A stretch of 27,390 nt of DNA from IMG/VR virus record IMGVR_UViG_3300020044_004293, positions 1-27,390 of that record, one strand, 5' to 3'. The first letter of the stretch is position 1. Every line of letters starts with the position of its first letter. Under the pieces are notes generated by a model, which saw nothing but the letters and a program-made list of their open reading frames with translations, ran no database searches and had not been told where the DNA came from. This DNA comes from a virus. Its lineage: Duplodnaviria > Caudoviricetes. Positions 2,556 through 21,436 of the stretch are shown in pieces. Made by a program: the position numbers and the translations under genes.

Positions 2556-3341
2556 ATGACAAGACTAATAAGAAATACCTTAGCGTTTGTAATAGGTTTA
2601 ATTATCGGAGGATACGCAGCATTTTCGTATGCGAATCCTATCGATGATGTATGCCCACAACATGTAGTTTGGGGCGCACCTCAAATTAAACAAGAAGGTA
2701 ATAACCAGTACCTATGTCGTACTGGTTATGCTGTGAATTACAACTATCAGACTAAGGTTGCTTATTTTGTAGCTGAAGTTATCAAACCAGAACTGCTAGT
2801 GAATAAAGCAGTATCTCGTAAAGATGATTTTCGTGAGGATCCAGAAATTCCTGCTACATATCGTGTCACATTAAAAGATTATCAAGGTTCTGGTCTTGAT
2901 CGTGGTCATATGGCACCTGCTGCGAACTTCACTTATGACGCAAGAGTTATGAGTGAATCTTTTTTGTTGACAAACATGATGCCACAAAGTCCTGGAAACA
3001 ATCGTGGAATCTGGAAATACTTAGAGGAAATGACTCGCTTCTGGGCATCAAAGTATGGTCACTTAAATGTTATCACAGGTACAATTTTTGATGCTAACTC
3101 TCAAACAATGGGGAATGGTGTAAAGGTTCCATCATATGTTTACAAAATCGTTATTGATCCACAACAGCAAAGATCTATTGCATTCTTATTTCCAAATGTT
3201 AAATTAGATCCAAAAATGATTGAGCAGTATGTTGTCTCAATTGGTGAGATAGAAGATTATACTGGTATAAACTTCTCTCCAGCACTACCACCAAACTTAA
3301 TACATCTTGAAAAAAATAGAGGTATCTTTAAAGATTGGTAA
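2556..3341 (+). CDS. DNA/RNA non-specific endonuclease (NucA/EndoG family), exported
   Basis: DRGHMAPA active-site motif, ESFLLTNMMPQ, N-RGIW and VP-YVYK motifs, and an N-terminal signal/TM segment. Confidence 0.92.
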   Translation: MTRLIRNTLAFVIGLIIGGYAAFSYANPIDDVCPQHVVWGAPQIKQEGNNQYLCRTGYAVNYNYQTKVAYFVAEVIKPELLVNKAVSRKDDFREDPEIPATYRVTLKDYQGSGLDRGHMAPAANFTYDARVMSESFLLTNMMPQSPGNNRGIWKYLEEMTRFWASKYGHLNVITGTIFDANSQTMGNGVKVPSYVYKIVIDPQQQRSIAFLFPNVKLDPKMIEQYVVSIGEIEDYTGINFSPALPPNLIHLEKNRGIFKDW

Positions 3342-3343
3342 TA

Positions 3344-5401
3344 ATGAAAAAACTATTATCTCCATGGCTGGCGCTGGTCACACTGGTGCTAATGATTGTG
3401 ATTCGTTTGGCAGACACATCGTTTGTAGAGTCTGTGCGACTTCGTTATTTCGATCAACTAATAACAAGCAAAGGAACAACTACATCTGAACAGGTGCATG
3501 TTGTAAATATCGACGATGAGTTTATTCGACAAAAAGGACAATTCCCGTTCCCTCGTGGGCAATATGCCTCCATCATTACTGATCTGTATAGGCATGGTGC
3601 TGGGTTGGTTGTGTTTAACATTTACATGCCTGACGCTGATCGCTTTAATCAAGATGATCAGTTAACAAAAGTACTAAAGAAATACCCTGTTGTTTTACCA
3701 CATACTGCAACAGACAATTCATCACCATTCGCACCATTTCGTCCAGGTGTTTCAGTAATTGGTGGCACTGCAGAAACAACAGGAGTGAGATATAATGGCA
3801 TATTACCAAACATTCAAAGTATCAACAACAGTGCTGCTGGTATTGGTGTCGTTAACACTATCCCAGAAATCGATGGCGTTGTGCGCAGAGTGCCGATGGT
3901 CGTCAACGCAGGTGGAGAACTCTACCCAAGTATCTCCCTCGAAACCCTCAGAGTTGCCAGCGGAGATCCCAGCTTCCAAGTCAAAGTCAACGAAGGTGGA
4001 ATCGAAGCAGTTAGAATTCCAAAGTTTGGAAAAATTCCAACAGACGAATACGGTAGAATCTGGGTGGATTGGTCATCCAAACCAACCGAACACTCCATGG
4101 CTAAGTTGCCAGAGGATTTCAAAGGTGGAATTGTTATCGTCGGTCTCACTGCTAGGGGACTCAATAATCCAGTATCCACAGCACGAGGAGAAATCTATCC
4201 GCACTATTTGCAAGCCAATGTATTAGAAACAGTTTCATCTGGTACTGTTATCAGCAGACCAGAGTGGTCGTTACTGGCTGAGTTGGGTTTTATGATTGTA
4301 GCAGTAGCCCTTTCAATCTTCCTAACAAGGTATACTCATGGATACATCTTCGCAATCTTACTGGGATTCATTACCTATTATGCAGGTGTGGAACTATTTC
4401 TTCGATCAGGGTATCTATTGGATGCTGTGTTCCCGATACTTACCATTGGGTTATGCAGCTTCCATGGATACATCGTCAAGTTCCTTGTCGAACTCAGAGC
4501 AAAACTCCAAATCAAAAAACAATTCGGAAACTACCTAAGCCCAGCATTAGTTGAGAAGTTACAGAAAAATCCAGAGTTGTTGGTATTGGGTGGAGAGTCT
4601 CGTGAATTGAGTATCATGTTTACTGATGTTCGTGGATTTACTTCTATCTCTGAGCACTATGGTAAAGATGTGCAGGGACTGACTAAAATTATGAATCGTT
4701 ACATGACTGCAATGACGATAAAGATTCTTGAGAACAATGGAACCCTAGATAAATATATCGGTGATGCGCAGATGGCTTTCTGGAACGCACCAGTCGATGA
4801 ACCAAATCATGCAAAGATGGCAGTGAAGACTGCTCTCGAGATGATGGACTCTTTGGATACATTCAATGCAGAAATCACAAAAGAAGGTGTCCCACCTTTT
4901 GGTATGGGGTTAGGTATTAATACTGGTGTCGTGGTTGTTGGGAATATGGGTTCTACTCAGAGATTTGATTACACTTGTCTAGGAGATCATGTGAACTTGG
5001 CATCCAGATTAGAAGGACAGAGTAAGGGTTATGGTGTTCGAATAATTCTTGGTCCAGAAACTGCAGCACAGATTGAAGATGAGTATGCAACACTAGAACT
5101 AGATTGTATCGCTGTCAAGGGTAAAAAAGAAGGTGTGAGAATTTATACTGTTCTTGGTAAGCATGATTGGTGGATGGAGAATTCAGCATATGTACCTGAG
5201 ACAATAGCCCATGAGAAAATGCTGGATCTTTATCGTATGCAGAAGTTTGATGCAGCAATTAAAATGTGTAATGAATTGAAAGAGTGTTTCCTTGGTGAGA
5301 TGAAACACTACTATGAACTTTGGATCGAAAGATGCGAAGAAATGAAGACCGCAGACTTACCCAAAGATTGGGATGGAGTTTATAGAGCAACAAGTAAATA
5401 A
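3344..5401 (+). CDS. CHASE2-domain class III adenylate/guanylate cyclase
   Basis: N-terminal TM, CHASE2 motifs (VVNIDD, FPFPR, DGVVRRVP), three TMs, then cyclase motifs FTDVRGFT, DKYIGDA, GINTG and GDHVNLASRLE. The Lys in DKYIGD suggests ATP specificity. An alternative start lies at 3335. Confidence 0.93.
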   Translation: MKKLLSPWLALVTLVLMIVIRLADTSFVESVRLRYFDQLITSKGTTTSEQVHVVNIDDEFIRQKGQFPFPRGQYASIITDLYRHGAGLVVFNIYMPDADRFNQDDQLTKVLKKYPVVLPHTATDNSSPFAPFRPGVSVIGGTAETTGVRYNGILPNIQSINNSAAGIGVVNTIPEIDGVVRRVPMVVNAGGELYPSISLETLRVASGDPSFQVKVNEGGIEAVRIPKFGKIPTDEYGRIWVDWSSKPTEHSMAKLPEDFKGGIVIVGLTARGLNNPVSTARGEIYPHYLQANVLETVSSGTVISRPEWSLLAELGFMIVAVALSIFLTRYTHGYIFAILLGFITYYAGVELFLRSGYLLDAVFPILTIGLCSFHGYIVKFLVELRAKLQIKKQFGNYLSPALVEKLQKNPELLVLGGESRELSIMFTDVRGFTSISEHYGKDVQGLTKIMNRYMTAMTIKILENNGTLDKYIGDAQMAFWNAPVDEPNHAKMAVKTALEMMDSLDTFNAEITKEGVPPFGMGLGINTGVVVVGNMGSTQRFDYTCLGDHVNLASRLEGQSKGYGVRIILGPETAAQIEDEYATLELDCIAVKGKKEGVRIYTVLGKHDWWMENSAYVPETIAHEKMLDLYRMQKFDAAIKMCNELKECFLGEMKHYYELWIERCEEMKTADLPKDWDGVYRATSK

Positions 5402-5862: not shown

Positions 5863-5904
5863 ATATCCCCTCTAGCCTATAACCCTACTGAGTGTAGGGT
5901 CATT

Positions 5905-13048: not shown

Positions 13049-13503
13049 AACAGAAATGGATTGATGCATTCATGGACACAGCGGAGAGATTCGCACAGTT
13101 GTCCAGTGCTAAACGATTGAAGGTTGGTGCTGTGGTCGTGAAAGACAATCGTATCATCTCAATTGGATATAATGGTATGCCATCTGGATGGACTAATGAG
13201 TGTGAAGAAGTTGTCACACCATCACTTCCATACTTGCAAGGCGATGGTCCAGTATTAAAAACTAAGGATGAAGTTATTCATGCTGAAGCAAACGCAATAC
13301 TCAAATTGGCTCGTGATGGTGAATCAGGCAATGGCTCCAGTTTATTCTGCACTCATGCTCCTTGCATTCAGTGCGCTAAGTTAATCCATGGAGCAGGGAT
13401 ACAGAAACTCTATTATCGGGATTCCTACAGAGACGACAATGGTCTAGCCTTCCTAGAAGCCTGCAATATAGAGGTCCAAAAAGTGCTTGACATTAATTCA
13501 TAA
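13045..13503 (+). CDS. cd: dCMP deaminase
   Basis: VGAVVV, IGYNG, HAEANAI and PCIQC zinc motifs. Confidence 0.93.
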   Translation: MKQKWIDAFMDTAERFAQLSSAKRLKVGAVVVKDNRIISIGYNGMPSGWTNECEEVVTPSLPYLQGDGPVLKTKDEVIHAEANAILKLARDGESGNGSSLFCTHAPCIQCAKLIHGAGIQKLYYRDSYRDDNGLAFLEACNIEVQKVLDINS

Positions 13504-13515
13504 ATACTGTATAAT
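13487..13515 (+). promoter_or_regulatory. Consensus sigma70 promoter
   Basis: TTGACA-N17-TATAAT. Confidence 0.88.
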
Positions 13516-13521
13516 AGACTT

Positions 13522-13863
13522 ATGAAAAATTGGAAAGGTATGCAAATGAAGAAGAAACTATCGTCGTTTATTGCAGTTGCTCTTGTAGCATCTTGTGGTT
13601 ACGCACCTGCTGCTCATGCTTGGGGTGCGAGAGAACAAGGTATCCTTACTGGTGTTGCAGGTCTTTGGGTGTTTCAGCAATTGTCTAAACCACCTGTTGC
13701 AGTTTACCAACAACCAGTTCCAGTTTATGTTCCACAACCACAAACTGTGTATGTGTATCCCACTCAAGCACCAGTGATTCAGTATCCAAATACTGTCTGC
13801 GAATTGCGCAGCGAATATGTAAATGGTCAAGTTATTACTGGAAATTTTTGCTATCAGCGTTAA
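13522..13863 (+). CDS. Small exported Pro/Val/Tyr-rich protein
   Basis: Signal peptide ending AHA; alternative starts at 13540 and 13546 follow SD AAAGG. Confidence 0.65.
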   Translation: MKNWKGMQMKKKLSSFIAVALVASCGYAPAAHAWGAREQGILTGVAGLWVFQQLSKPPVAVYQQPVPVYVPQPQTVYVYPTQAPVIQYPNTVCELRSEYVNGQVITGNFCYQR

Positions 13864-13917
13864 TTTTTCCTATATAATTAACAACCCTACGAACAGTAAG
13901 GTTATTTTAAAATAAGT

Positions 13918-13946
13918 TTGACTTTAAACCGAAAGAAGAATAGAAT
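13918..13946 (+). promoter_or_regulatory. Sigma70-type promoter P1 of the tRNA region leader
   Basis: TTGACT-N17-TAGAAT with an AT-rich upstream tract. Confidence 0.75.
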
Positions 13947-13952
13947 TCTACC

Positions 13953-14072
13953 ATGAACTCGAAAATGATATCCTTAAGCAGAAAGCACCTACCACTTAAT
14001 AGTGGCTGGACATGCTCACGCCCACAGTATACATTTGCGATTGAGTTGGATAGTGGGGGTTTTGGAAAGTAA
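13953..14072 (+). CDS. Putative attenuator leader peptide (39 aa, leaderless)
   Basis: MNSKMISLSRKHLPLNSGWTCSRPQYTFAIELDSGGFGK*; 33 distinct codons; its 3' end overlaps the antiterminator strand. Confidence 0.65.
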   Translation: MNSKMISLSRKHLPLNSGWTCSRPQYTFAIELDSGGFGK

Positions 14073-14107
14073 AGTATAGACTAACAAGTTTATTTCCCAA
14101 AACCCTC
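14055..14107 (+). promoter_or_regulatory. Antiterminator hairpin
   Basis: GGGGGTTTTGGAAAGTAAA (14055-14073) pairs with TTTATTTCCCAAAACCCTC (14089-14107): 18 of 19 positions pair, including 2 G-U. Confidence 0.72.
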
Positions 14108-14137
14108 TACCTGAAAAGTTAGAGGGTTTTTTGTTTT
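14099..14137 (+). terminator. Intrinsic terminator (attenuator)
   Basis: Perfect 11-bp stem AAAACCCTCTA / TAGAGGGTTTT followed by TTGTTTT. Confidence 0.85.
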
Positions 14138-14142
14138 AGGGG

Positions 14143-14171
14143 TTGACTATCATGTCAACATGAGATAAGAT
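14143..14171 (+). promoter_or_regulatory. Possible second promoter P2, overlapped by an inverted repeat
   Basis: TTGACT-N17-TAAGAT; the palindrome GTTGAC-N6-GTCAAC spans 14142-14159. Confidence 0.55.
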
Positions 14172-14178
14172 CTCTCCC

Positions 14179-14190
14179 TGTTCTTTAAAA
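14179..14190 (+). promoter_or_regulatory. rrn-type boxA antitermination element
   Basis: TGTTCTTTAAAA versus the boxA consensus TGCTCTTTAACA, located just before the first tRNA. Confidence 0.65.
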
Positions 14191-14207: not shown

Positions 14208-14281
14208 TCCCGAGTAGTGTAGTGGTAACACACCAGACTTTGACTCTGTTATTGTAAGTTCGATTCTTACCTCGGGTGCCA
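14208..14281 (+). tRNA. tRNA-Gln(UUG)
   Basis: Cloverleaf; anticodon loop CTTTGAC; CCA end. Confidence 0.88.
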
Positions 14282-14388
14282 AACATAAACACATTGCGTG
14301 ACGCCACTGTCGTAAGTGCTGCAGCACGAGAAGATAAAAAGCCTAAGCATGCAGATGGGCTCGCATGGCGTAATGTGTTTTTGTTTGG
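14279..14388 (+). ncRNA. Putative structured RNA A
   Basis: Closing stem of about 20 bp, CCAAACATAAACACATTGCG / CGTAATGTGTTTTTGTTTGG. Confidence 0.45.
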
Positions 14389-14446
14389 TTTAATTTTTTG
14401 AAAGAGAGGATGATATGAAACGAAGTTCGAAAACTCGAAAACCTAT

Positions 14447-14521
14447 GGGGGTATAACTTAACGGCTAAAGTAGTAGGCTTTTAACCTATTAATCAGAGTT
14501 CGATTCTCTGTGCCCCTACCA
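14447..14521 (+). tRNA. tRNA-Lys(UUU)
   Basis: Anticodon loop CTTTTAA; GTTCGA T-loop; CCA end. Confidence 0.9.
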
Positions 14522-14534
14522 AGAATTCTTTGGT

Positions 14535-14608
14535 GTGACTATGATGTAGCGGTAGCATCTCAGATTGTGATTCTGATCGTATGGGTTCAACTCCCATTAG
14601 TCACCCCA
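14535..14608 (+). tRNA. tRNA-His(GUG)
   Basis: Anticodon loop TTGTGAT; C73; CCA end; position -1 is T rather than G. Confidence 0.88.
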
Positions 14609-14618
14609 AAGAATTTTT

Positions 14619-14694
14619 GCCGAGATAGCTCAGTTGGTAGAGCGACAGACTGAAAATCTGTGCGTGGGCGGTTCGATCCCGTCTCTCGGTACCA
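14619..14694 (+). tRNA. tRNA-Phe(GAA)
   Basis: Canonical cloverleaf; anticodon loop CTGAAAA. Confidence 0.95.
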
Positions 14695-14698
14695 ATAC

Positions 14699-14773
14699 AG
14701 CCAATTAGCTCAGTGGTAGAGCAATCGCTTGATAAGCGATAGGTCAGTGGATCGTAACCACTATTGGCTACCA
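14699..14773 (+). tRNA. tRNA-Ile(GAU)
   Basis: Anticodon loop TTGATAA; atypical T-loop ATCGTAA. Confidence 0.88.
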
Positions 14774-14779
14774 ATTTAT

Positions 14780-14868
14780 GGAAGGTTAATTCAGCTGGGC
14801 TGGACTCTGCCTTGAAAGCAGAAGGTGTGCGAAAGCGCATGGAGTTCGATTCTACCATCCTTCCTCCA
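14780..14868 (+). tRNA. tRNA-Ser(UGA)
   Basis: Anticodon loop CTTGAAA; long variable arm. Confidence 0.85.
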
Positions 14869-14878
14869 AGTTATATGT

Positions 14879-15337
14879 ATGATGAAAACTATATTTACAT
14901 TCCTGCTGTTTATTCCTCTTGTTGCTAATGCATGCAATGGTTATGTGATAGCATTCAGAGGATTGAAGGATGTGTTCGATCAGAGAGAACTAAACATTTA
15001 CTCTAGTCGTCTTGCATACTGCAGTAAAACTTTTTCTTGGCATAAAGAAAAAGATGCGATAGAATTTATCAGTACAATAAATGTTCCGTATCAGTTGTAT
15101 GGATTTAGTAGAGGAGCAGGTTCTGTTGTTACAGTATTAAAACAAGTAAAGACAAAACCTGAGTATGTGATAACGATCGGTGCGTATAAAACTACTGATG
15201 TAGATTTTAGTAAGTACAATGTTCGTTATGATAATTTCTTTGACAACTCTGGCATTGGTCAGCGTAGTCCTGGAATGTATATGAATGTTCCTCATGATAA
15301 GATACAATCTGAAGTGAATAAATTTTTGCCTCGTTAA
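14879..15337 (+). CDS. Exported alpha/beta-hydrolase-like protein inside the tRNA array
   Basis: Signal peptide and a GFSRG (GxSxG) motif; the stop codon overlaps the 5' end of tRNA-Val. Confidence 0.65.
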   Translation: MMKTIFTFLLFIPLVANACNGYVIAFRGLKDVFDQRELNIYSSRLAYCSKTFSWHKEKDAIEFISTINVPYQLYGFSRGAGSVVTVLKQVKTKPEYVITIGAYKTTDVDFSKYNVRYDNFFDNSGIGQRSPGMYMNVPHDKIQSEVNKFLPR

Positions 15338-15402
15338 CTCAGCGGTAGAGTGTCTCCCTTACAAGGAGAAGGTCGGCAGTTCGATCCTGTCACGAGGTAC
15401 CA
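15328..15402 (+). tRNA. tRNA-Val(UAC)
   Basis: Anticodon loop CTTACAA; CCA end. Confidence 0.92.
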
Positions 15403-15403
15403 T

Positions 15404-15478
15404 GCGTCTTTAGTAAAATGAATATTACACATCGCTACGAACGATGAAGTGGGAGTTTGATTCTCTCAGGACGCACCA
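15404..15478 (+). tRNA. tRNA-Arg(ACG)
   Basis: Anticodon loop CTACGAA; CCA end. Confidence 0.85.
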
Positions 15479-15484
15479 AGATTA

Positions 15485-15574
15485 GGAAGATGGGCAGGAC
15501 GGTAATGCAGCGGATTGCTAATCCGTAGATTCACGAAAGTGGGTCACAGGGTTCGACTCCCTGATCTTCCACCA
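15485..15574 (+). tRNA. tRNA-Ser(GCU)
   Basis: Anticodon loop TTGCTAA; long variable arm. Confidence 0.9.
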
Positions 15575-15582
15575 GTTAGTAT

Positions 15583-15676
15583 GCTCCCATAGTTTAATGG
15601 TAAAACACCTGCTTTATACGCAGTTCCGTCGCCAGATTAGCGAGCGATCTAGGTTCGAATCCTAGTGGGAGTACCA
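15583..15676 (+). tRNA. tRNA with UAU anticodon (Ile by anticodon) and a long variable arm
   Basis: CTGC-TTTATAC-GCAG anticodon arm; extra arm of about 20 nt; CCA end. Confidence 0.75.
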
Positions 15677-15681
15677 GTATT

Positions 15682-15756
15682 GGGCTGATAGCTTAATGGT
15701 AAAGCAGTCGACTCATAATCGATCGAGTCTGTGTTCAATTCACAGTCAGCCCACCA
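15682..15756 (+). tRNA. tRNA-CAU, probably Ile2 (lysidine type)
   Basis: Anticodon arm GTCGA-CTCATAA-TCGAT resembles bacterial tRNA-Ile2. Confidence 0.75.
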
Positions 15757-15759
15757 AAT

Positions 15760-15838
15760 GCCCTTGTGGACAAATTGGGAAAGTCGTCTCTCTCAAAAGG
15801 AGAAGTTGTTCTGAGTTCGAATCTCAGCAGGGGCACCA
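15760..15838 (+). tRNA. tRNA-Leu(CAA) with a short variable region
   Basis: TCTCT-CTCAAAA-GGAGA anticodon arm; A73; CCA end. Confidence 0.78.
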
Positions 15839-15846
15839 GATAGTTG

Positions 15847-15875
15847 TTGACATGCAAGATTGTTTGATGTATAAT
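15847..15875 (+). promoter_or_regulatory. Internal sigma70 promoter in the tRNA array
   Basis: TTGACA-N17-TATAAT. Confidence 0.85.
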
Positions 15876-15884
15876 AGAGTTAAT

Positions 15885-15969
15885 GCGAGTATGGTGGAAT
15901 AGGTAGACACAAGAGACTTAAAATCTCTCGCCTTCGTGCGTGTCGGTTCAAGTCCGACTACTCGTACCA
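15885..15969 (+). tRNA. tRNA-Leu(UAA)
   Basis: Anticodon loop CTTAAAA; long variable arm. Confidence 0.92.
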
Positions 15970-15974
15970 ATTTT

Positions 15975-16049
15975 ATCCCCATAGTATAATGGATAATACA
16001 GCAGTCTTCTAAACTGCGAATCGAGGTTCGATTCCTCGTGGGGGTGCCA
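15975..16049 (+). tRNA. tRNA-Arg(UCU)
   Basis: Anticodon loop CTTCTAA; CCA end. Confidence 0.92.
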
Positions 16050-16058
16050 GAGATAAAT

Positions 16059-16132
16059 GTAGGTGGAGCCAGTTGGACAGGCACTGGATTGCAAACCCAT
16101 GGAAGCAGGTTCGATTCCTGTCACCTACTCCA
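16059..16132 (+). tRNA. tRNA-Cys(GCA)
   Basis: Anticodon loop TTGCAAA; U73; imperfect anticodon stem. Confidence 0.8.
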
Positions 16133-16140
16133 GATAGTTG

Positions 16141-16169
16141 TTGACTTGTAAGAGTTTTTGATGTATAAT
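16141..16169 (+). promoter_or_regulatory. Internal sigma70 promoter in the tRNA array
   Basis: TTGACT-N17-TATAAT; flanks similar to the promoter at 15847. Confidence 0.82.
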
Positions 16170-16302
16170 AGTTGTTCTTCAAAAGTCCTCTCTGAGTCTT
16201 GGTTGCGAAACTAAGCATGAGGCATCGTGGATCTGATTGTTGCAATTCGCCTACAATCTTCCATTAGCAAGTTTGGTGGTTCTTGACAAAAACTACCACC
16301 AT

Positions 16303-16377
16303 ACTGCGTTCGACTTCAGGTGAGGTCATCACCCTTTCAAGGTGACTAGATGGGATCGTTACCCATACGCAGTACCA
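16303..16377 (+). tRNA. tRNA-Glu(UUC)
   Basis: Anticodon loop CTTTCAA; atypical T-loop ATCGTTA. Confidence 0.85.
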
Positions 16378-16378
16378 G

Positions 16379-16599
16379 ATTTAATTACATTGGTTACCAA
16401 GCCAGTAGGTGATTTGGAAGAGAATAATCAGTAGCCGTACTGACTCTTGCCAAGTTACATGAAAGATGGAAATCAGCTTAGGCTTTGATCAGTAGTCACG
16501 CTGGAACAACTTGGAATGTAATGTGGATGACGACCAGTCGCTAGACGATAGCGTGGTTAGCCCGATGGGATTGTTGTCAGACATCCAGTGTAATTAAAT
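16379..16599 (+). ncRNA. Putative structured RNA B
   Basis: 15-bp closing stem ATTTAATTACATTGG / CCAGTGTAATTAAAT, with internal hairpins. Confidence 0.5.
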
Positions 16600-16603
16600 G
16601 GGG

Positions 16604-16752
16604 TATTAGTTTAGTGTTATCAAGGTATCGTCATAGGACGCTATGACTATGCGGGTCCAACTGTGCGAGGAACGGATCCTAATATAACTGCTAGTCGCTC
16701 GCCAGAGGAAGCACCTTTGTTGGCAAATAGGCAAGATAACACTAAACTAATA
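16604..16752 (+). ncRNA. Putative structured RNA C
   Basis: Perfect 18-bp closing stem TATTAGTTTAGTGTTATC / GATAACACTAAACTAATA. Confidence 0.5.
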
Positions 16753-16756
16753 TTAT

Positions 16757-16849
16757 GGAGGCATTGTAGATATGGCGTGTTCTGCAGCGGACTGTAAATC
16801 CGTTCCCTCGTGGTAAACAATGTTGGTTCGACTCCAACTGCCTCCACCA
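16757..16849 (+). tRNA. tRNA-Tyr(GUA)
   Basis: Anticodon loop CTGTAAA; long variable arm. Confidence 0.88.
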
Positions 16850-16932
16850 TTAAAAGTCCTTGAAGATTAATCAAGGCAGATTAATCACCGAAAGGTTTGA
16901 TTAGCAGCAGGTGAAAGCCCTGCACCAATTTA

Positions 16933-17007
16933 GGCTCGTTCGTATAATGGTCATTACTTCGGATTGTCTATCCGATTACGGGGGTTCGATTCCCCCACGA
17001 GTCGCCA
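16933..17007 (+). tRNA. tRNA-Asp(GUC)
   Basis: Anticodon loop TTGTCTA; G73. Confidence 0.9.
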
Positions 17008-17014
17008 AGTTTAT

Positions 17015-17089
17015 TCCAGTGTAGCACAGCGGTAGTGCAGTTGACTGTTAATCAATTGGTCGTAGGTTCGATCCCTGCCACTGGAGCCA
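17015..17089 (+). tRNA. tRNA-Asn(GUU)
   Basis: Anticodon loop CTGTTAA; G73. Confidence 0.93.
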
Positions 17090-17091
17090 GT

Positions 17092-17293
17092 TTTGTTGTA
17101 AGTGTTAGCAAGAGAAAGACACATTGAGAAGATTCTTCGAAGATCGACTTAATGTAAAGCAGTGAGGGGCGCAATACCCTAGCAAAAATATAGAAGCACT
17201 GGTCAAGTATCCCAAGTAGCGTACCGAGTCCTGCTCGAGCTAGTTACACAGGTGAATGGTGCATATAACGATGGGTGCACTACTTACAACAAA
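17092..17293 (+). ncRNA. Putative structured RNA D
   Basis: 12-bp closing stem TTTGTTGTAAGT / ACTTACAACAAA, with internal UUCG- and GCAA-type hairpins. Confidence 0.48.
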
Positions 17294-17301
17294 TTTATTA
17301 T

Positions 17302-17377
17302 AGCGGGGAGGGTCTGGTCACCAGCGAGGTCTCATAAGCCTTTGCCATCCTTGGTTCGAATCCAAGTCCCGCAACCA
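17302..17377 (+). tRNA. Initiator-like tRNA-Met(CAU)
   Basis: Acceptor AGCGGGG / TCCCGCA with a 1:72 mismatch; anticodon loop CTCATAA; atypical D arm. Confidence 0.75.
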
Positions 17378-17577
17378 AACCTGCAGCTAATCACTGCTAG
17401 TGTGATCCGCACGAGAGAAACTGACTGACGATCAGTAGGATGGTTCTGGTCTACCTAACCAGCGTTGGCAACACGAGAGTTCTTTCTGGTCGGGAAGTGG
17501 GTGGAGGGTATGCGTGATGGGGTTGGGGATTCTCGGCTCTTGATGTACTATAATTACCACCGCAGAAAGAAAGCATT
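17378..17577 (+). ncRNA. Putative structured RNA E
   Basis: GC-richer non-coding spacer; stem TTCTTTCTG (17480) / CAGAAAGAA (17563); CACGAGAG occurs twice. Confidence 0.35.
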
Positions 17578-17578
17578 T

Positions 17579-17659
17579 GCCCCTGTGGTGGAATTGGTAG
17601 ACACGCTGGTCTTAGAAGCCAGTCTTCGGGTGCGAGTTCGAGTCTCGCTGGGGGCACCA
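17579..17659 (+). tRNA. tRNA-Leu(UAG)
   Basis: Anticodon loop CTTAGAA; CCA end. Confidence 0.92.
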
Positions 17660-17757
17660 TAAAAAGTTGTATTGGTAAGGAAAGAAAAAGGAGCATGGGC
17701 AAGTTGAGACATCCTAAAGTCGAAACCAGATACCGCACCTGCCAGTATAACTCTTTA
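17660..17757 (+). ncRNA. Putative structured RNA F
   Basis: Closing stem TAAAAAGTTGTATTGG / CCAGTATAACTCTTTA. Confidence 0.4.
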
Positions 17758-17758
17758 T

Positions 17759-17833
17759 GGTGATGTAGCACAGTGGTAGTGCATCTCCTTCATACGGAGC
17801 AGGTCAGTGGCTCGAATCCACTCATCACCACCA
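17759..17833 (+). tRNA. tRNA-Met(CAU), elongator type
   Basis: Anticodon loop TTCATAC; paired 1:72; CCA end. Confidence 0.85.
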
Positions 17834-17841
17834 GTTTTTAT

Positions 17842-17919
17842 CCGAGTGTAGCGCAGTCTGGTTAGCGCATCTGCTTTGGGAGCAGAGGGTCGAAGGTTCG
17901 AATCCTTCTACTCGGACCA
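17842..17919 (+). tRNA. tRNA-Pro(UGG)
   Basis: Anticodon loop TTTGGGA; C1:G72. Confidence 0.95.
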
Positions 17920-17926
17920 AGTTTTT

Positions 17927-18001
17927 GCCCTTGTATCCTTAATGGTAGAGGTTCGCTCTTGTAAGGCGAGTGATGCGGTTCGATTCCGTACTGGGGCACC
18001 A
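17927..18001 (+). tRNA. tRNA-Thr(UGU)
   Basis: Anticodon loop CTTGTAA; CCA end. Confidence 0.87.
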
Positions 18002-18018
18002 AGCATAAGTAGTATATC

Positions 18019-18093
18019 GGGGGTGTAGTGCTAATGGGAACACATCTGGTTTGCAACCAGAAATTGAGAGTTCGATTCTCTCCATCTCCACCA
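18019..18093 (+). tRNA. tRNA-Ala(UGC)
   Basis: Anticodon loop TTTGCAA; G3:U70 identity pair. Confidence 0.92.
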
Positions 18094-18112
18094 TTTTAAT
18101 ATAAAGGACAGT

Positions 18113-18376
18113 ATGATTATTAAACCATTGAAGAAGAAAATTCTTGTTGCTGAAAACAAGAGTGAAACAAAAAGCGAGTCAGGTATCATTCTTGAAGGTG
18201 CTGCTTCAGTTCGAGAATCTAAACGAGCAACTGTGCTTGCGATTGGACCAGATGTAACATTAGTTAAAGAAGGTGATGTTGTTCTTCTTGAATGGACTAA
18301 AGGTACTGTTGTTAAAGTTGATGATGCACAAAGAGTGATGATTGACGAAGAATTTGTTGTAGCAGTTTTTGATTAA
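18113..18376 (+). CDS. groES: Co-chaperonin GroES-like protein
   Basis: IKPL...ETKSESGIIL...VLAIGP-V--VKEGDVV motifs. Confidence 0.9.
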   Translation: MIIKPLKKKILVAENKSETKSESGIILEGAASVRESKRATVLAIGPDVTLVKEGDVVLLEWTKGTVVKVDDAQRVMIDEEFVVAVFD

Positions 18377-18382
18377 AGTTTA

Positions 18383-18458
18383 GCCCACATAGCTCATTTG
18401 GTAGAGCAACGCACTAGTAATGCGTAGGTGGTCAGTTCGAATCCGACTGTGGGCACCA
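18383..18458 (+). tRNA. tRNA-Thr(AGU)
   Basis: ACGCA-CTAGTAA-TGCGT anticodon arm; canonical body. Confidence 0.9.
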
Positions 18459-18472
18459 AATTAGGAGTTTAT

Positions 18473-18637
18473 ATGAGTGATGGTGGTAAAGGTAGTAAGC
18501 CAAGACCATTTAGTGTCACGCAAGAAGAATATGATAATCGATTCGAAGCAATCTTTGGCAAGAAAAAGAAAAGCGAAGAAGAGAAATTTGATGAGAAAGT
18601 AGTCATGAAAGATGAGTACTATGATTTAGAAGATTAA
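18473..18637 (+). CDS. Small phage hypothetical protein
   Basis: SD AGGAG; MSDGGKGSKPRP...FEAIFGKK. Confidence 0.75.
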   Translation: MSDGGKGSKPRPFSVTQEEYDNRFEAIFGKKKKSEEEKFDEKVVMKDEYYDLED

Positions 18638-18638
18638 T

Positions 18639-18712
18639 GTCTCGATGGTGTAATGGCAGCATCACAGTCTCCAAAACTGTTGGTCGGGGTTCGAGTCCCT
18701 GTCGGGATGCCA
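18639..18712 (+). tRNA. tRNA-Trp(CCA)
   Basis: Anticodon loop CTCCAAA; G73. Confidence 0.92.
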
Positions 18713-18729
18713 AATATAAAGGAAAATAG

Positions 18730-19440
18730 ATGAAACAAACTGGAAATATAAATTGTGAGATGGGTTGGCAAACCTATTTGGATACTCCAAAACAAGGAGA
18801 AGAAGTCACATTAGATTTATGGCCAACGCCAGTTAGAATGTCAAAACCATTTGATGATGAGTTTATACAAAAACTTCGTGAAGATGTTCAGTATCTATTG
18901 AAACCTGGAGCACCTGGACAGTCCAACAAAACTAATTTGTGGGCACTTCCAGATTTACCTGATACAATGATTCAGGTAAAACATAAAATGGAAGAAATGT
19001 GTGAGGTTGCATTTAGAAATCATTGTGAGATGCCATTACCACAGTTTAGTGCTTCTAAAGGATATTTTAGAGCAGTTGCTGGTAACAGTCCATATAGAAT
19101 AATGCCACATAGACATTCTAATGTTTTATTTGTTGCGATAATGTATGTTACAATACCAGAAGAGAATCCTGGAAATTTAGTTTTTATTGATCCTCGTGCT
19201 GGTGTGAATTGGGTCAATCAATTTTCTGCATATAAAAAAGTTCGTGCCGAAGAGGGATTGATGATAGTACATCCAGGTTATTTAATTCATTATGTGGAAC
19301 CATCTAATGTAGAAATGGGTATGTTCTATAATGGTAGACTGGCGATAGTTAGTAATATCCATAGGAATCAAGATGAATGGCAACAATCGTTAGAAGATAA
19401 TGATGAACAAATCACAAAGATGACGAGTGTAGATTTTTAA
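18730..19440 (+). CDS. Putative 2OG-Fe(II) oxygenase (TIGR02466-like)
   Basis: PHRH, GNLVFIDPR, P-YLIHYV and R-AIVSN motifs. Confidence 0.8.
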   Translation: MKQTGNINCEMGWQTYLDTPKQGEEVTLDLWPTPVRMSKPFDDEFIQKLREDVQYLLKPGAPGQSNKTNLWALPDLPDTMIQVKHKMEEMCEVAFRNHCEMPLPQFSASKGYFRAVAGNSPYRIMPHRHSNVLFVAIMYVTIPEENPGNLVFIDPRAGVNWVNQFSAYKKVRAEEGLMIVHPGYLIHYVEPSNVEMGMFYNGRLAIVSNIHRNQDEWQQSLEDNDEQITKMTSVDF

Positions 19441-19441
19441 T

Positions 19442-19515
19442 GCAGGTAAGCTAAAGGTTAGACGCCAGCCTTCCAAGCTGCGCTGAGTGGGGTTCGACTC
19501 CCCCTACCTGCTCCA
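19442..19515 (+). tRNA. tRNA-Gly(UCC)
   Basis: Anticodon loop CTTCCAA; U73. Confidence 0.82.
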
Positions 19516-19533
19516 TATAAGTAGGAGTATAAG

Positions 19534-20010
19534 ATGCGTAAGCAAATTGATATTGAAGAAGTGAGACAATTTATTGCAGAGCAAACACCAGAGACTAAAA
19601 TCTATATCGGTGGTGACTCTGAACGATTTAATATTGGCAAAGATTGGTACGCAGATTATATTATGGTTGTTGTTGTCCATATCAATGGTAACAATGGCTG
19701 TAAGATTTTTGGTGAAGTAGTTCGTGAGAGAGATTACGATCAAAAACGAGACAAACCAAGAATGAGATTGATGAACGAAGTGTATAAAATTGCTGATTTG
19801 TATCTCAAGTTACATGATGTGCTTGAGGACAGAGAAGTAGAAGTCCATCTGGATATTAATCCAGATGATATGCATGGTTCATCTTGTGTAATACAAGAAG
19901 CGACAGGATACATTCGTGGAATGTGTAATGTTGTTCCGATGGTTAAACCAAATGCATTTGCTGCATCATATGCAGCAGACAGATATAAGTCTTTTAAGAA
20001 AGCAGCTTGA
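19534..20010 (+). CDS. RNase H-like YkuK (DUF458) family protein
   Basis: IYIGGDS, RLMNEV, EVHLDIN and KPNAFAASYAAD motifs. Confidence 0.85.
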   Translation: MRKQIDIEEVRQFIAEQTPETKIYIGGDSERFNIGKDWYADYIMVVVVHINGNNGCKIFGEVVRERDYDQKRDKPRMRLMNEVYKIADLYLKLHDVLEDREVEVHLDINPDDMHGSSCVIQEATGYIRGMCNVVPMVKPNAFAASYAADRYKSFKKAA

Positions 20011-20011
20011 T

Positions 20012-20461
20012 GTGATACAGACAATACATTTTATAACAGAGCAATTCGTTTCGTTGCTACTGGAAGATCCAGTTCGACCAACGATACCTCACACTGATAG
20101 AATCGGAGAGAACAAAGACATCTTTGTCTTTCGTGATGAGAATGATGAAGTGAAAGCAATCACTTGCGTCAGTTATCAGAAAACGATTCCAACTACTGAG
20201 GGTGAACTGTTTGAAAAATGTATTGATCCATCAGTTGCAGTATTCTATACCATTTGGAGTTATGCTCCAGGTGCTGCAAGAAAGTTAATCTTCGATGCTG
20301 TCAAACACATCAAAGAGAACAGAAAAGAAATCACAAGGTTTGTTACGCTATCACCACCAACTGACATGGCAAGAAAATTCCATTTAAGGAATGGTGCTGT
20401 CGTGTTTAGAGAGAACGAACAAACAGTCAACTACGAATACAAGCAAGCAGTTTTACTTTAA
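20012..20461 (+). CDS. Hypothetical protein, possibly GNAT-like fold
   Basis: DPVRP, AVFYTIWSY-PGA and VTLSP-T-MARKFHLRNGA motifs; the start is uncertain (GTG 20012). Confidence 0.65.
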   Translation: MIQTIHFITEQFVSLLLEDPVRPTIPHTDRIGENKDIFVFRDENDEVKAITCVSYQKTIPTTEGELFEKCIDPSVAVFYTIWSYAPGAARKLIFDAVKHIKENRKEITRFVTLSPPTDMARKFHLRNGAVVFRENEQTVNYEYKQAVLL

Positions 20462-20463
20462 AC

Positions 20464-20492
20464 TTGTCTTGCAATAATTATTGATGTATAAT
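20464..20492 (+). promoter_or_regulatory. Sigma70-type promoter
   Basis: TTGTCT-N17-TATAAT. Confidence 0.8.
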
Positions 20493-20517
20493 ATACCTAT
20501 TGAATTGGAGAAATAAA

Positions 20518-21096
20518 ATGCAAATTACCCTACGAAAAGCAAATGCAGTCCAGAGCGAGATCCGCAAGGCGATTGCAGCTAAGAATGTTAGCGATACAGT
20601 TAGCATCACAGAGTTCACCAAAAATGTTGATGGTGTTTTGAGTAAAGCAATGACTGACTTTACCACTGATGTTACTCGCAAAGTGGCATTGAACACTGCT
20701 CTGTTTAACATTCGCAAGAATGTTGCACGAGTAAATGCGTCTGCTGGTATCAGCGACATCCTTGCTGACATCGAGTTGATCGATGCAAATATGGCAGTTT
20801 ACTCTGCAGTGTCCACCAAGGATGTGGCTAAAACTTTAAGTGAGATTACTGCTCGCATCGAAAAGATGAAAGCAACAACAGCAAGTGCCACAGATCGTAT
20901 CTATGGAGATCGTTACAACACTGTGGAAACCACTGTTGTTGAACAGAGTGTTATCGATGGCTCTAAAGAAGTCGTGAAGAAATTGAAGCGTGAGAAACAG
21001 GCGCTGCAAGATAAGCTGTTGACTTTGAATGTCAACAAAACAATCGACATTGATAGTGTCGATGAAATGGTATTGAAATTGGAAGGTATCATCTAA
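20518..21096 (+). CDS. Coiled-coil protein, possibly DIP1984-like
   Basis: SD GGAG; begins ITLRKA and ends LQDKLLTLNVNKTI; the family call is tentative. Confidence 0.6.
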   Translation: MQITLRKANAVQSEIRKAIAAKNVSDTVSITEFTKNVDGVLSKAMTDFTTDVTRKVALNTALFNIRKNVARVNASAGISDILADIELIDANMAVYSAVSTKDVAKTLSEITARIEKMKATTASATDRIYGDRYNTVETTVVEQSVIDGSKEVVKKLKREKQALQDKLLTLNVNKTIDIDSVDEMVLKLEGII

Positions 21097-21101
21097 GTTT
21101 C

Positions 21102-21348
21102 GAGGGACAATGCGGATAAGAGAGCAGTAGCAATAGTTGCGAAAACTAATACTTACAAAGTATTGGCTTGGTCTTGAAAACCAAATCCGAACAATCGTCC
21201 GACTTTGTTGTTGCTCCACGAATTATACTTGACTGTTATAGTCGCTGCTTGTTGCTTCGTGGTTTATAACTTTTGTGGACTGTCTTTTGCACACTGCTAA
21301 TTGCATATTGCATTGCGACTATTCGCTTGAATTGAAACATTGTTCCTC
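21102..21348 (+). ncRNA. Putative structured RNA G downstream of the coiled-coil gene
   Basis: Closing stem GAGGGACAATG / CATTGTTCCTC; internal stem GAGCAGTAGCAATAGT / ACTTTGTTGTTGCTC; no + strand ORF in the track. Confidence 0.5.
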
Positions 21349-21361
21349 ACCCATTAACTAT

Positions 21362-21436
21362 GCAGGATTAATTCAGTGGTAGAATGTCTCGTTGCCAACG
21401 AGAATGTCATCGGTTCGAATCCGATATCCTGCTCCA
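21362..21436 (+). tRNA. tRNA-Gly(GCC)
   Basis: Anticodon loop TTGCCAA; U73. Confidence 0.92.

Follow-up and report, generated by a model that had tools for sequence, protein, structure and literature searches.

Leaders of amino-acid operons, among them trpL, hisL, pheL and the multivalent thrL and ilvL, contain runs of between one and three amino acids, and the genes under their control are biosynthetic. A broader sensing range is found in the whiB7 upstream open reading frame (uORF) of mycobacteria, the closest precedent for the element reported here, where translation of the uORF leads to termination and stalling to an antiterminator (PMC10274678, available part). The same part of that source describes the M. 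smegmatis uORF as encoding every amino acid except Cys, and reports that a single Trp codon suffices for Trp sensing and that loss of the uORF start codon results in higher expression. Large phages often carry near-complete tRNA sets, and it is a long-standing question whether these compensate for codon usage or replace destroyed host tRNAs. Phage tRNAs have been reported to counter tRNA-cleaving defences (PMC11555353, PMC10264068, PMC11464382, each in the part available), and in the accessible text of PMC11555353 their rescue depends on expression strength, the control described being a strong promoter. A large bacterial tRNA array, the Anabaena trn operon (L-array), is induced by translational stress (PMC8421152), and the available text describes its control as promoter repeats together with a repressor (PMC8421152; TrcR, PMC10272220). 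A literature search with most subscription journals outside its reach found no attenuator on phage or operon tRNA genes.

Here we examine a leader that precedes a phage tRNA array in IMG/VR record IMGVR_UViG_3300020044_004293; the window is the whole stretch analysed, positions 1 to 27,390. From comparative sequence evidence and RNA folding models we interpret the leader as a translation-coupled attenuator that would sense a shortage of almost any charged tRNA and raise transcription of the array, a reading to which we give a probability of roughly 0.7.

Genomic context and the tRNA array

The window, part of the genome of an uncultured T4-like phage, encodes a T4-type RNase H, dCMP deaminase, GroES and 2OG-Fe(II) oxygenases, with the best cultured-phage RNase H matches reaching only ~40% identity. 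A 688-aa ORF (3335-5401) is, judging from its motifs, presumably similar to CHASE2-type membrane adenylate cyclases. The tRNA genes form a single array:

14208..21436, + strand, tRNA array, 27 genes called by ARAGORN and two read by eye

The first gene, tRNA-Gln, starts at 14208. The two genes read by eye, Ser near 14783 and Gly near 19441, fold as tRNA-like structures and bring the count to the 29 tRNAs of the initial annotation. Two promoters lie within the array, at 15847-15875 (12/12 sigma70 match) and 16141-16169 (11/12).

The array has several further features. The gene at 15583-15676, called as Ile(TAT), has a long extra arm and would be an unusual reader of AUA; ATA is kept in 51 of 55 related leaders. 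tRNA-Thr genes with an AGT anticodon are rare among bacteria, and the one at 18383-18458 would possibly need inosine editing. Structured-looking spacers occur at 14290-14385, 16190-16300, 16380-16600, 17090-17290 and 17380-17575, and no Rfam family matches any of them at gathering score. A closing helix forms in the fold of the first, at a z score of only -0.45. The segment 14405-14460 holds a Shine-Dalgarno-like site and a very short ORF, basic in composition, which extends into the tRNA-Lys gene.

Leader architecture

The interval upstream of the array contains the following features:

13487..13515, + strand, upstream promoter P0, 12/12 sigma70 match, serving a 113-aa ORF (13522-13863)
13918..13946, + strand, leader promoter P1, TTGACT-17-TAGAAT, sigma70-type, 10/12 match
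13953..14072, + strand, leader ORF of 39 codons, predicted sensing zone at codons 2-32
13992..14005, + strand, small hairpin within the ORF (codons 14-18), putative pausing site for RNA polymerase
14055..14107, + strand, antiterminator helix pairing 14055-14073 with 14089-14107, the 5' strand comprising the last codons and the stop
14099..14137, + strand, intrinsic terminator, stem 14099-14130 with a GAAA loop, U-tract to 14137

A promoter scan and a recount of the ORF reproduced the elements first noted here, namely the P1 hexamers with their 17-nt spacing, an ATG 6 nt past the -10, for which a leaderless start is predicted, and 39 codons specifying 19 amino acids with 33 distinct codons and no Val, although the array carries tRNA-Val. 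No codon is used more than twice, Ala occurs once, and 26 of 32 decoding classes are represented. Transcription from P0 could also read on into the leader; no terminator was called in the interval between them, which holds only a -5.6 kcal/mol hairpin. The small hairpin within the ORF is weak (-5 to -12 kcal/mol) and recurs in the majority of relatives, where some of the changes are compensatory; it is a candidate pause signal.

The antiterminator hairpin has 18 of its 19 positions paired (-22.1 kcal/mol, z -3.65) and the terminator stem is likewise stable (-16.3 kcal/mol, z -2.96). The terminator is missing from the list produced by the terminator scan, probably on account of an internal mismatch. 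Since the two helices share 14099-14107 they are mutually exclusive, and folding confirms the arrangement originally proposed. That proposal had also listed all four Gly codons among those used by the ORF; three of them sit in the antiterminator strand, which a ribosome stalled there would mask, and these three would therefore be unable to act as sensors.

As a single copy, the leader has a codon content that is moderately unusual. None of 20000 windows of phage genes (mean 25.1) reached 33 distinct codons, and yet the value gives P=0.025 against base-shuffled ORFs, which agrees with the caution attached to the initial annotation that codon diversity here is only moderate evidence. For 19 amino acids the corresponding values are P=0.05 against gene windows and 0.10 against base shuffles.

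The window sequence was also found in river metatranscriptome assemblies. Contigs, which carry no information on strand, end or level, cover the leader in 4/4 runs examined (of 24); in runs X2 and X4 a single contig spans the terminator into tRNA-Gln, and in X1 and X3 the contig breaks at 14056 and 14073. The highest RNA contig depth in two river runs, a contig-level figure, lies over 16182-16400 within the array.

Conservation among relatives

Patterns derived from the peptide gave 25 and 65 matches in IMG/VR and 95 in metagenomes, 13 of the 25 from the first pattern being chance matches. A core subfamily of 55 distinct close relatives was assembled, entry to which required an open ORF and a stop 20-40 nt before the terminator core. 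A tRNA gene follows in 53 of the 55, nearly always tRNA-Gln, and the -10 lies 6-7 nt from the ATG in 47. The stop is 25-35 nt before the terminator core in all 55 members of this set, for which 20-40 nt had been required, while ORF length ranges from 32 to 46 codons. The alternative frames are closed by stops in 54/55 and 55/55 relatives; the leader frame is open in 55/55 by construction.

Covariation in both helices had been suggested as a check and was found in an alignment of 41 sequences (41 of 49 distinct segments plus L045, near-duplicates removed). The antiterminator has 90.9% of cells paired and six pairs with two-sided changes, also in loci that have a promoter-like site after the terminator, and the terminator has 95.4% paired and five such pairs. 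In slid controls the paired fraction does not exceed 60% for the antiterminator and 68% for the terminator, a comparison in which the paired fractions of the real helices are inflated because the reference helices come from the fold of this window. Judged from these alignments, the leader ORF and its helices are a real, conserved regulatory element.

Searches of this locus against cultured phages by blastn and tblastn returned only tRNA-Gln or chance matches, and the leader peptide belongs to no PHROG family. None of 37 matches of one antiterminator-terminator pattern in GTDB genomes combined a leader with a tRNA, which does not imply absence from bacteria. A leader variant without Arg occurs before tRNA-Leu; its terminator is kept in L474 and lost in L038 (801-914), a natural deletion.

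Amino-acid and codon content of the leaders

The amino-acid content of the leader is kept while its peptide diverges. In 68 of 69 family members the ORF specifies 19-20 amino acids, and in 46 all 20, with a mean of 19.65 in the leader frame versus 16.2 and 17.4 in the other frames. Cys is present exactly once in 54 of 55 relatives, either 2-4 codons after Trp (35 leaders) or 10-15 codons before it (19), and at both sites in none. On a tree built without those columns this relocation takes 7-9 changes, at least five of them forced by well-supported branches; five independent pairs go one way and none the opposite (sign test p=0.0625). Relocation of Gln provided too few independent pairs for a sign test. 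Tyr occurs exactly once in 55/55 relatives, spread over 13 positions, some of them reached through indels. Thirteen further leaders all have 19-20 amino acids, one of them with two Cys. These observations support selection for retaining almost every amino acid once, as read from the sequences both here and in the unrelated pre-array leaders described below.

At the codon level, ATA is found in 51 of the 55 relatives, TCC in 54, AGR in 50, CGH in 53 and TTR in 55, and ACY, GCY, CCY and CGG are mostly absent. With decoding classes as we defined them, and two of the tRNAs read by eye, the leader contains 24 of 26 classes served by the array versus two of six unserved (Fisher p=0.006; p=0.03 when limited to amino acids with more than one class). 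Synonymous diversity given the peptide is slight, with p=0.013 for the blind representatives (among the matches listed), 0.12 for this copy under a uniform null and 0.98 for 14 non-core members. The diversity signal is strong at the level of amino acids and weaker at that of isoacceptors.

Leaders retrieved without reference to the peptide

As a guard against circularity, peptide-blind scans were made with the terminator only (at least 122 loci) and with antiterminator plus terminator (at least 120 loci). A detector blind to amino acids yielded at least 100 distinct leaders, at least 60 of them from the blind scans, which fall into at least 27 single-linkage families. Among the matches listed in the terminator-only scan, a tRNA follows 29 terminators, 24 of which have a strong antiterminator, versus 9 of the 92 others. 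Again among the matches listed, 19-20 amino acids are found in 10 of 27 family representatives, where 1.6 (gene windows) or 2.1 (shuffles) would be expected, and in 9 of 26 once the family of this window is left out; the other 17 of the 27 families reach 13-18, and in them the geometry occurs without a near-complete amino-acid set.

Near-complete leaders with unrelated peptides include L153 (20 amino acids in 34 codons), L282 (20 in 38) and L256 (19 in 26). Of five near-complete leaders examined that have no tRNA within 450 nt, four head an array further on, and the fifth is cut by the contig end. The recurrence of the same logic in leaders with unrelated peptides suggests a widespread class. 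Four leaders with unrelated peptides (L132, L251, L282 and L126) have no match in cultured phages.

Two 20-amino-acid leaders, L144 and L153, belong to attenuators inside a tRNA array rather than at its head. Five others (L235, L317, L328, L329 and L340) show the pre-tRNA attenuator geometry with leaders of only 13-15 amino acids, whose sensing may be confined to a subset that corresponds to the neighbouring tRNAs.

Sites between the terminator and the first tRNA

Two sites in the short gap after the terminator, and a repeat upstream of the leader, bear on how the array could be transcribed:

14143..14171, + strand, second promoter-like site P2, 9/12 match, inverted repeat over the -35
14180..14190, + strand, boxA-like Nus-factor site, perfect match to GYTCTTTAANA
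13886..13901, + strand, imperfect inverted repeat CCYTAC..GTARGG, 5' of the leader promoter -35

Neither P2 nor the boxA figured in the initial annotation. Use of P2 would bypass the attenuator in this copy. Promoter-like sites occur in the gap of 21 of 53 relatives; the other 32 have none, and for these the attenuator looks like the only way into the array. The caveat of the initial annotation that other promoters lie downstream is borne out by the promoter scan, with sites at 14143, 15847 and 16141, and these tell against the attenuator gating all 29 tRNAs here. Given P2 and the two strong promoters within the array, the attenuator would boost tRNA output in this copy rather than gate it.

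The spacing from P2 to boxA is the same as for clear promoters in relatives. The boxA is the sole GYTCTTTAANA match in the window, where 0.21 are expected, and the consensus is the gamma-proteobacterial one (PMC5725501, available part). A boxA-like site is present in the gap of 43 of 53 relatives. An rRNA-type boxA before the array suggests that host Nus factors are used on the phage tRNA transcript.

The CCYTAC..GTARGG repeat lies no more than 80 nt 5' of the leader ATG in 30 of 55 relatives, and a second copy is located at 5884-5899 in the window. In some relatives it is also found 5' of P2 (L039, L044 and L045 are among the repeat carriers). It is possibly the operator of a phage regulator, or a weak hairpin.

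Proposed mechanism and alternative explanations

Folding of the RNA up to the terminator loop, the state before the terminator can form, gives an antiterminator probability of ~1 in the absence of a ribosome and for A-site positions from codon 2 to codon 31; this falls to 0.66 at codon 32 and to at most 0.16 from codon 33. In the same kind of model masking of the antiterminator begins 7-10 codons before the stop in 55/55 relatives. At equilibrium the full RNA behaves differently, with the terminator favoured at P 0.9-1.0 when the ribosome stalls at codons ~6-21 and at 0.79 when none is present; the switch must therefore be kinetic, acting by trapping.

In the proposed sequence of events, a ribosome keeping pace with the polymerase would mask 14055-14073, the terminator would form and transcription would end at 14137. 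A ribosome delayed at a depleted codon, whether through host tRNA cleavage, tRNA decay during infection or starvation, would leave the antiterminator in place, and the polymerase would read on into the tRNA genes. By analogy with the rRNA case, Nus factors would then load at boxA and the polymerase would be carried through the untranslated RNA. In this copy P2 would supply the basal output and the attenuator an inducible increment to the first tRNA block. The claim of 'pan' sensing made at the outset is to be narrowed for two amino acids. Val is absent from the leader in 15 of 55 relatives, and 20 of 55 have no Val codon within the sensing zone. Asp is borderline, its codon lying where the masked zone begins, such that it would be sensed in 54/54 relatives if the ribosome masks no more than 8 nt past the A-site start and in 4/54 if it masks 10 nt or more.

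The fold model predicts read-through for any lag or for an absent ribosome, and the leader might accordingly be a generic translation-coupling sensor reading ribosome initiation or pace (ribosome loss, antibiotics, host shut-off), with its codon content incidental. The 17 of 27 unrelated families that have the same geometry and only 13-18 amino acids, among the matches listed, are in keeping with such a sensor, which nevertheless leaves unexplained a single Cys that relocates 7-9 times, one Tyr in 55/55 relatives and near-complete amino-acid sets in unrelated families; we consider it unlikely, while noting that the two readings overlap, as an almost-any-tRNA attenuator would also respond to general slowing. 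A more local explanation treats 13953-14137 as a self-contained small gene or RNA, closed by a terminator of its own, and has the array transcribed from P2, the attenuator being vestigial or nearly always terminating here. The P2-boxA spacing shared with clear promoters, the preference for the terminator at equilibrium and the strong promoters inside the array would fit, but the gap lacks a promoter-like site in 32 of 53 relatives, the antiterminator covaries, in P2-bearing loci as well, and its 18-pair helix is intact in this copy, and on balance we find this explanation improbable.

Nascent-peptide arrest sensors include TnaC, SpeFL and ErmCL, and a KHLPLxSGW core, invariant in the first alignments, could in principle stall the ribosome upon ligand in the same manner, although these sets were themselves retrieved with the core. 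Peptide-blind retrieval recovered the same geometry with altered or unrelated cores, and part of the core coincides with the hairpin. Moreover, its third positions are no more variable than its first (0.16 vs 0.24, in a set partly retrieved with the core), a pattern more in keeping with constraint on codons or RNA than with a function of the peptide. An arrest sensor is in our estimation very improbable.

With the almost-any-tRNA attenuator as the preferred reading, a wider and more tentative proposal, to which we would give slightly less than even odds, is that a compact test message has arisen repeatedly in large phages. Such a message would sample almost all tRNA species, including even Ile-AUA, Arg-AGA and three Ser isoacceptors, and its transit time would switch on a replacement array, in a closed loop that would detect and answer host anticodon-nuclease defence of any specificity. 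If the attenuator reading is true, array transcription tied to decoding speed at nearly every codon would favour the replacement view of phage tRNAs, which a 200-nt reporter could then test directly. Leader-peptide attenuation would also be shown to reach tRNA genes and viruses, and the element could serve as a ready-to-use reporter of tRNA damage inflicted by unknown defence systems.

Comparison with known systems

An Rfam scan of the leader gave Thr_leader at 18.9 bits and Phe_leader at 15.4 bits against a gathering score of 55, no family other than tRNA at its gathering score, and no covariance-model match to a T-box or other Rfam riboswitch. Two features of ribosome-mediated attenuators are nonetheless present, in that a short leader ORF lies between a promoter and tRNA genes and is followed by mutually exclusive, covarying helices; the element likely works like a leader-peptide attenuator yet falls outside the trp/his/thr families. 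With trpL, hisL, pheL, thrL and ilvL it shares the order of promoter, short ORF, antiterminator over the ORF end and intrinsic terminator. It differs from them in that it has no codon run and uses no codon more than twice, in the tRNA genes downstream, and in that a strong 1:2 protector helix is not established.

The Anabaena L-array resembles the phage array as a large set of tRNA genes raised under impaired translation, whereas the available part of PMC8421152 describes neither an attenuator nor a leader. The rationale is likewise common to anti-defence phage tRNAs, with attenuation going unmentioned in the accessible text of PMC11555353. The boxA matches the consensus of rRNA operon Nus antitermination (PMC5725501, available part) but stands before a phage tRNA array and after an attenuator, with Nus binding being putative.

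Broad-spectrum sensing had initially been presented as a departure from known attenuators; the whiB7 uORF is a precedent for it (PMC10274678, available part), and makes the mechanism more plausible and less new. According to the same part of that source, whiB7 attenuation controls a chromosomal transcription factor gene, whereas the present element is viral and its output is tRNA. The whiB7 uORF also has a high Ala content (25-40%), and in other species several amino acids are missing from it (PMC10274678, available part), while the phage leader has one Ala in 39 codons and a tRNA array, not whiB7, downstream. Compared with the whiB7 uORF, the phage leader packs a near-pangram into a compact ORF and bears signs of selection that keeps rare residues at a single copy each, and the likeness between them is one of mechanism, with no homology claimed.
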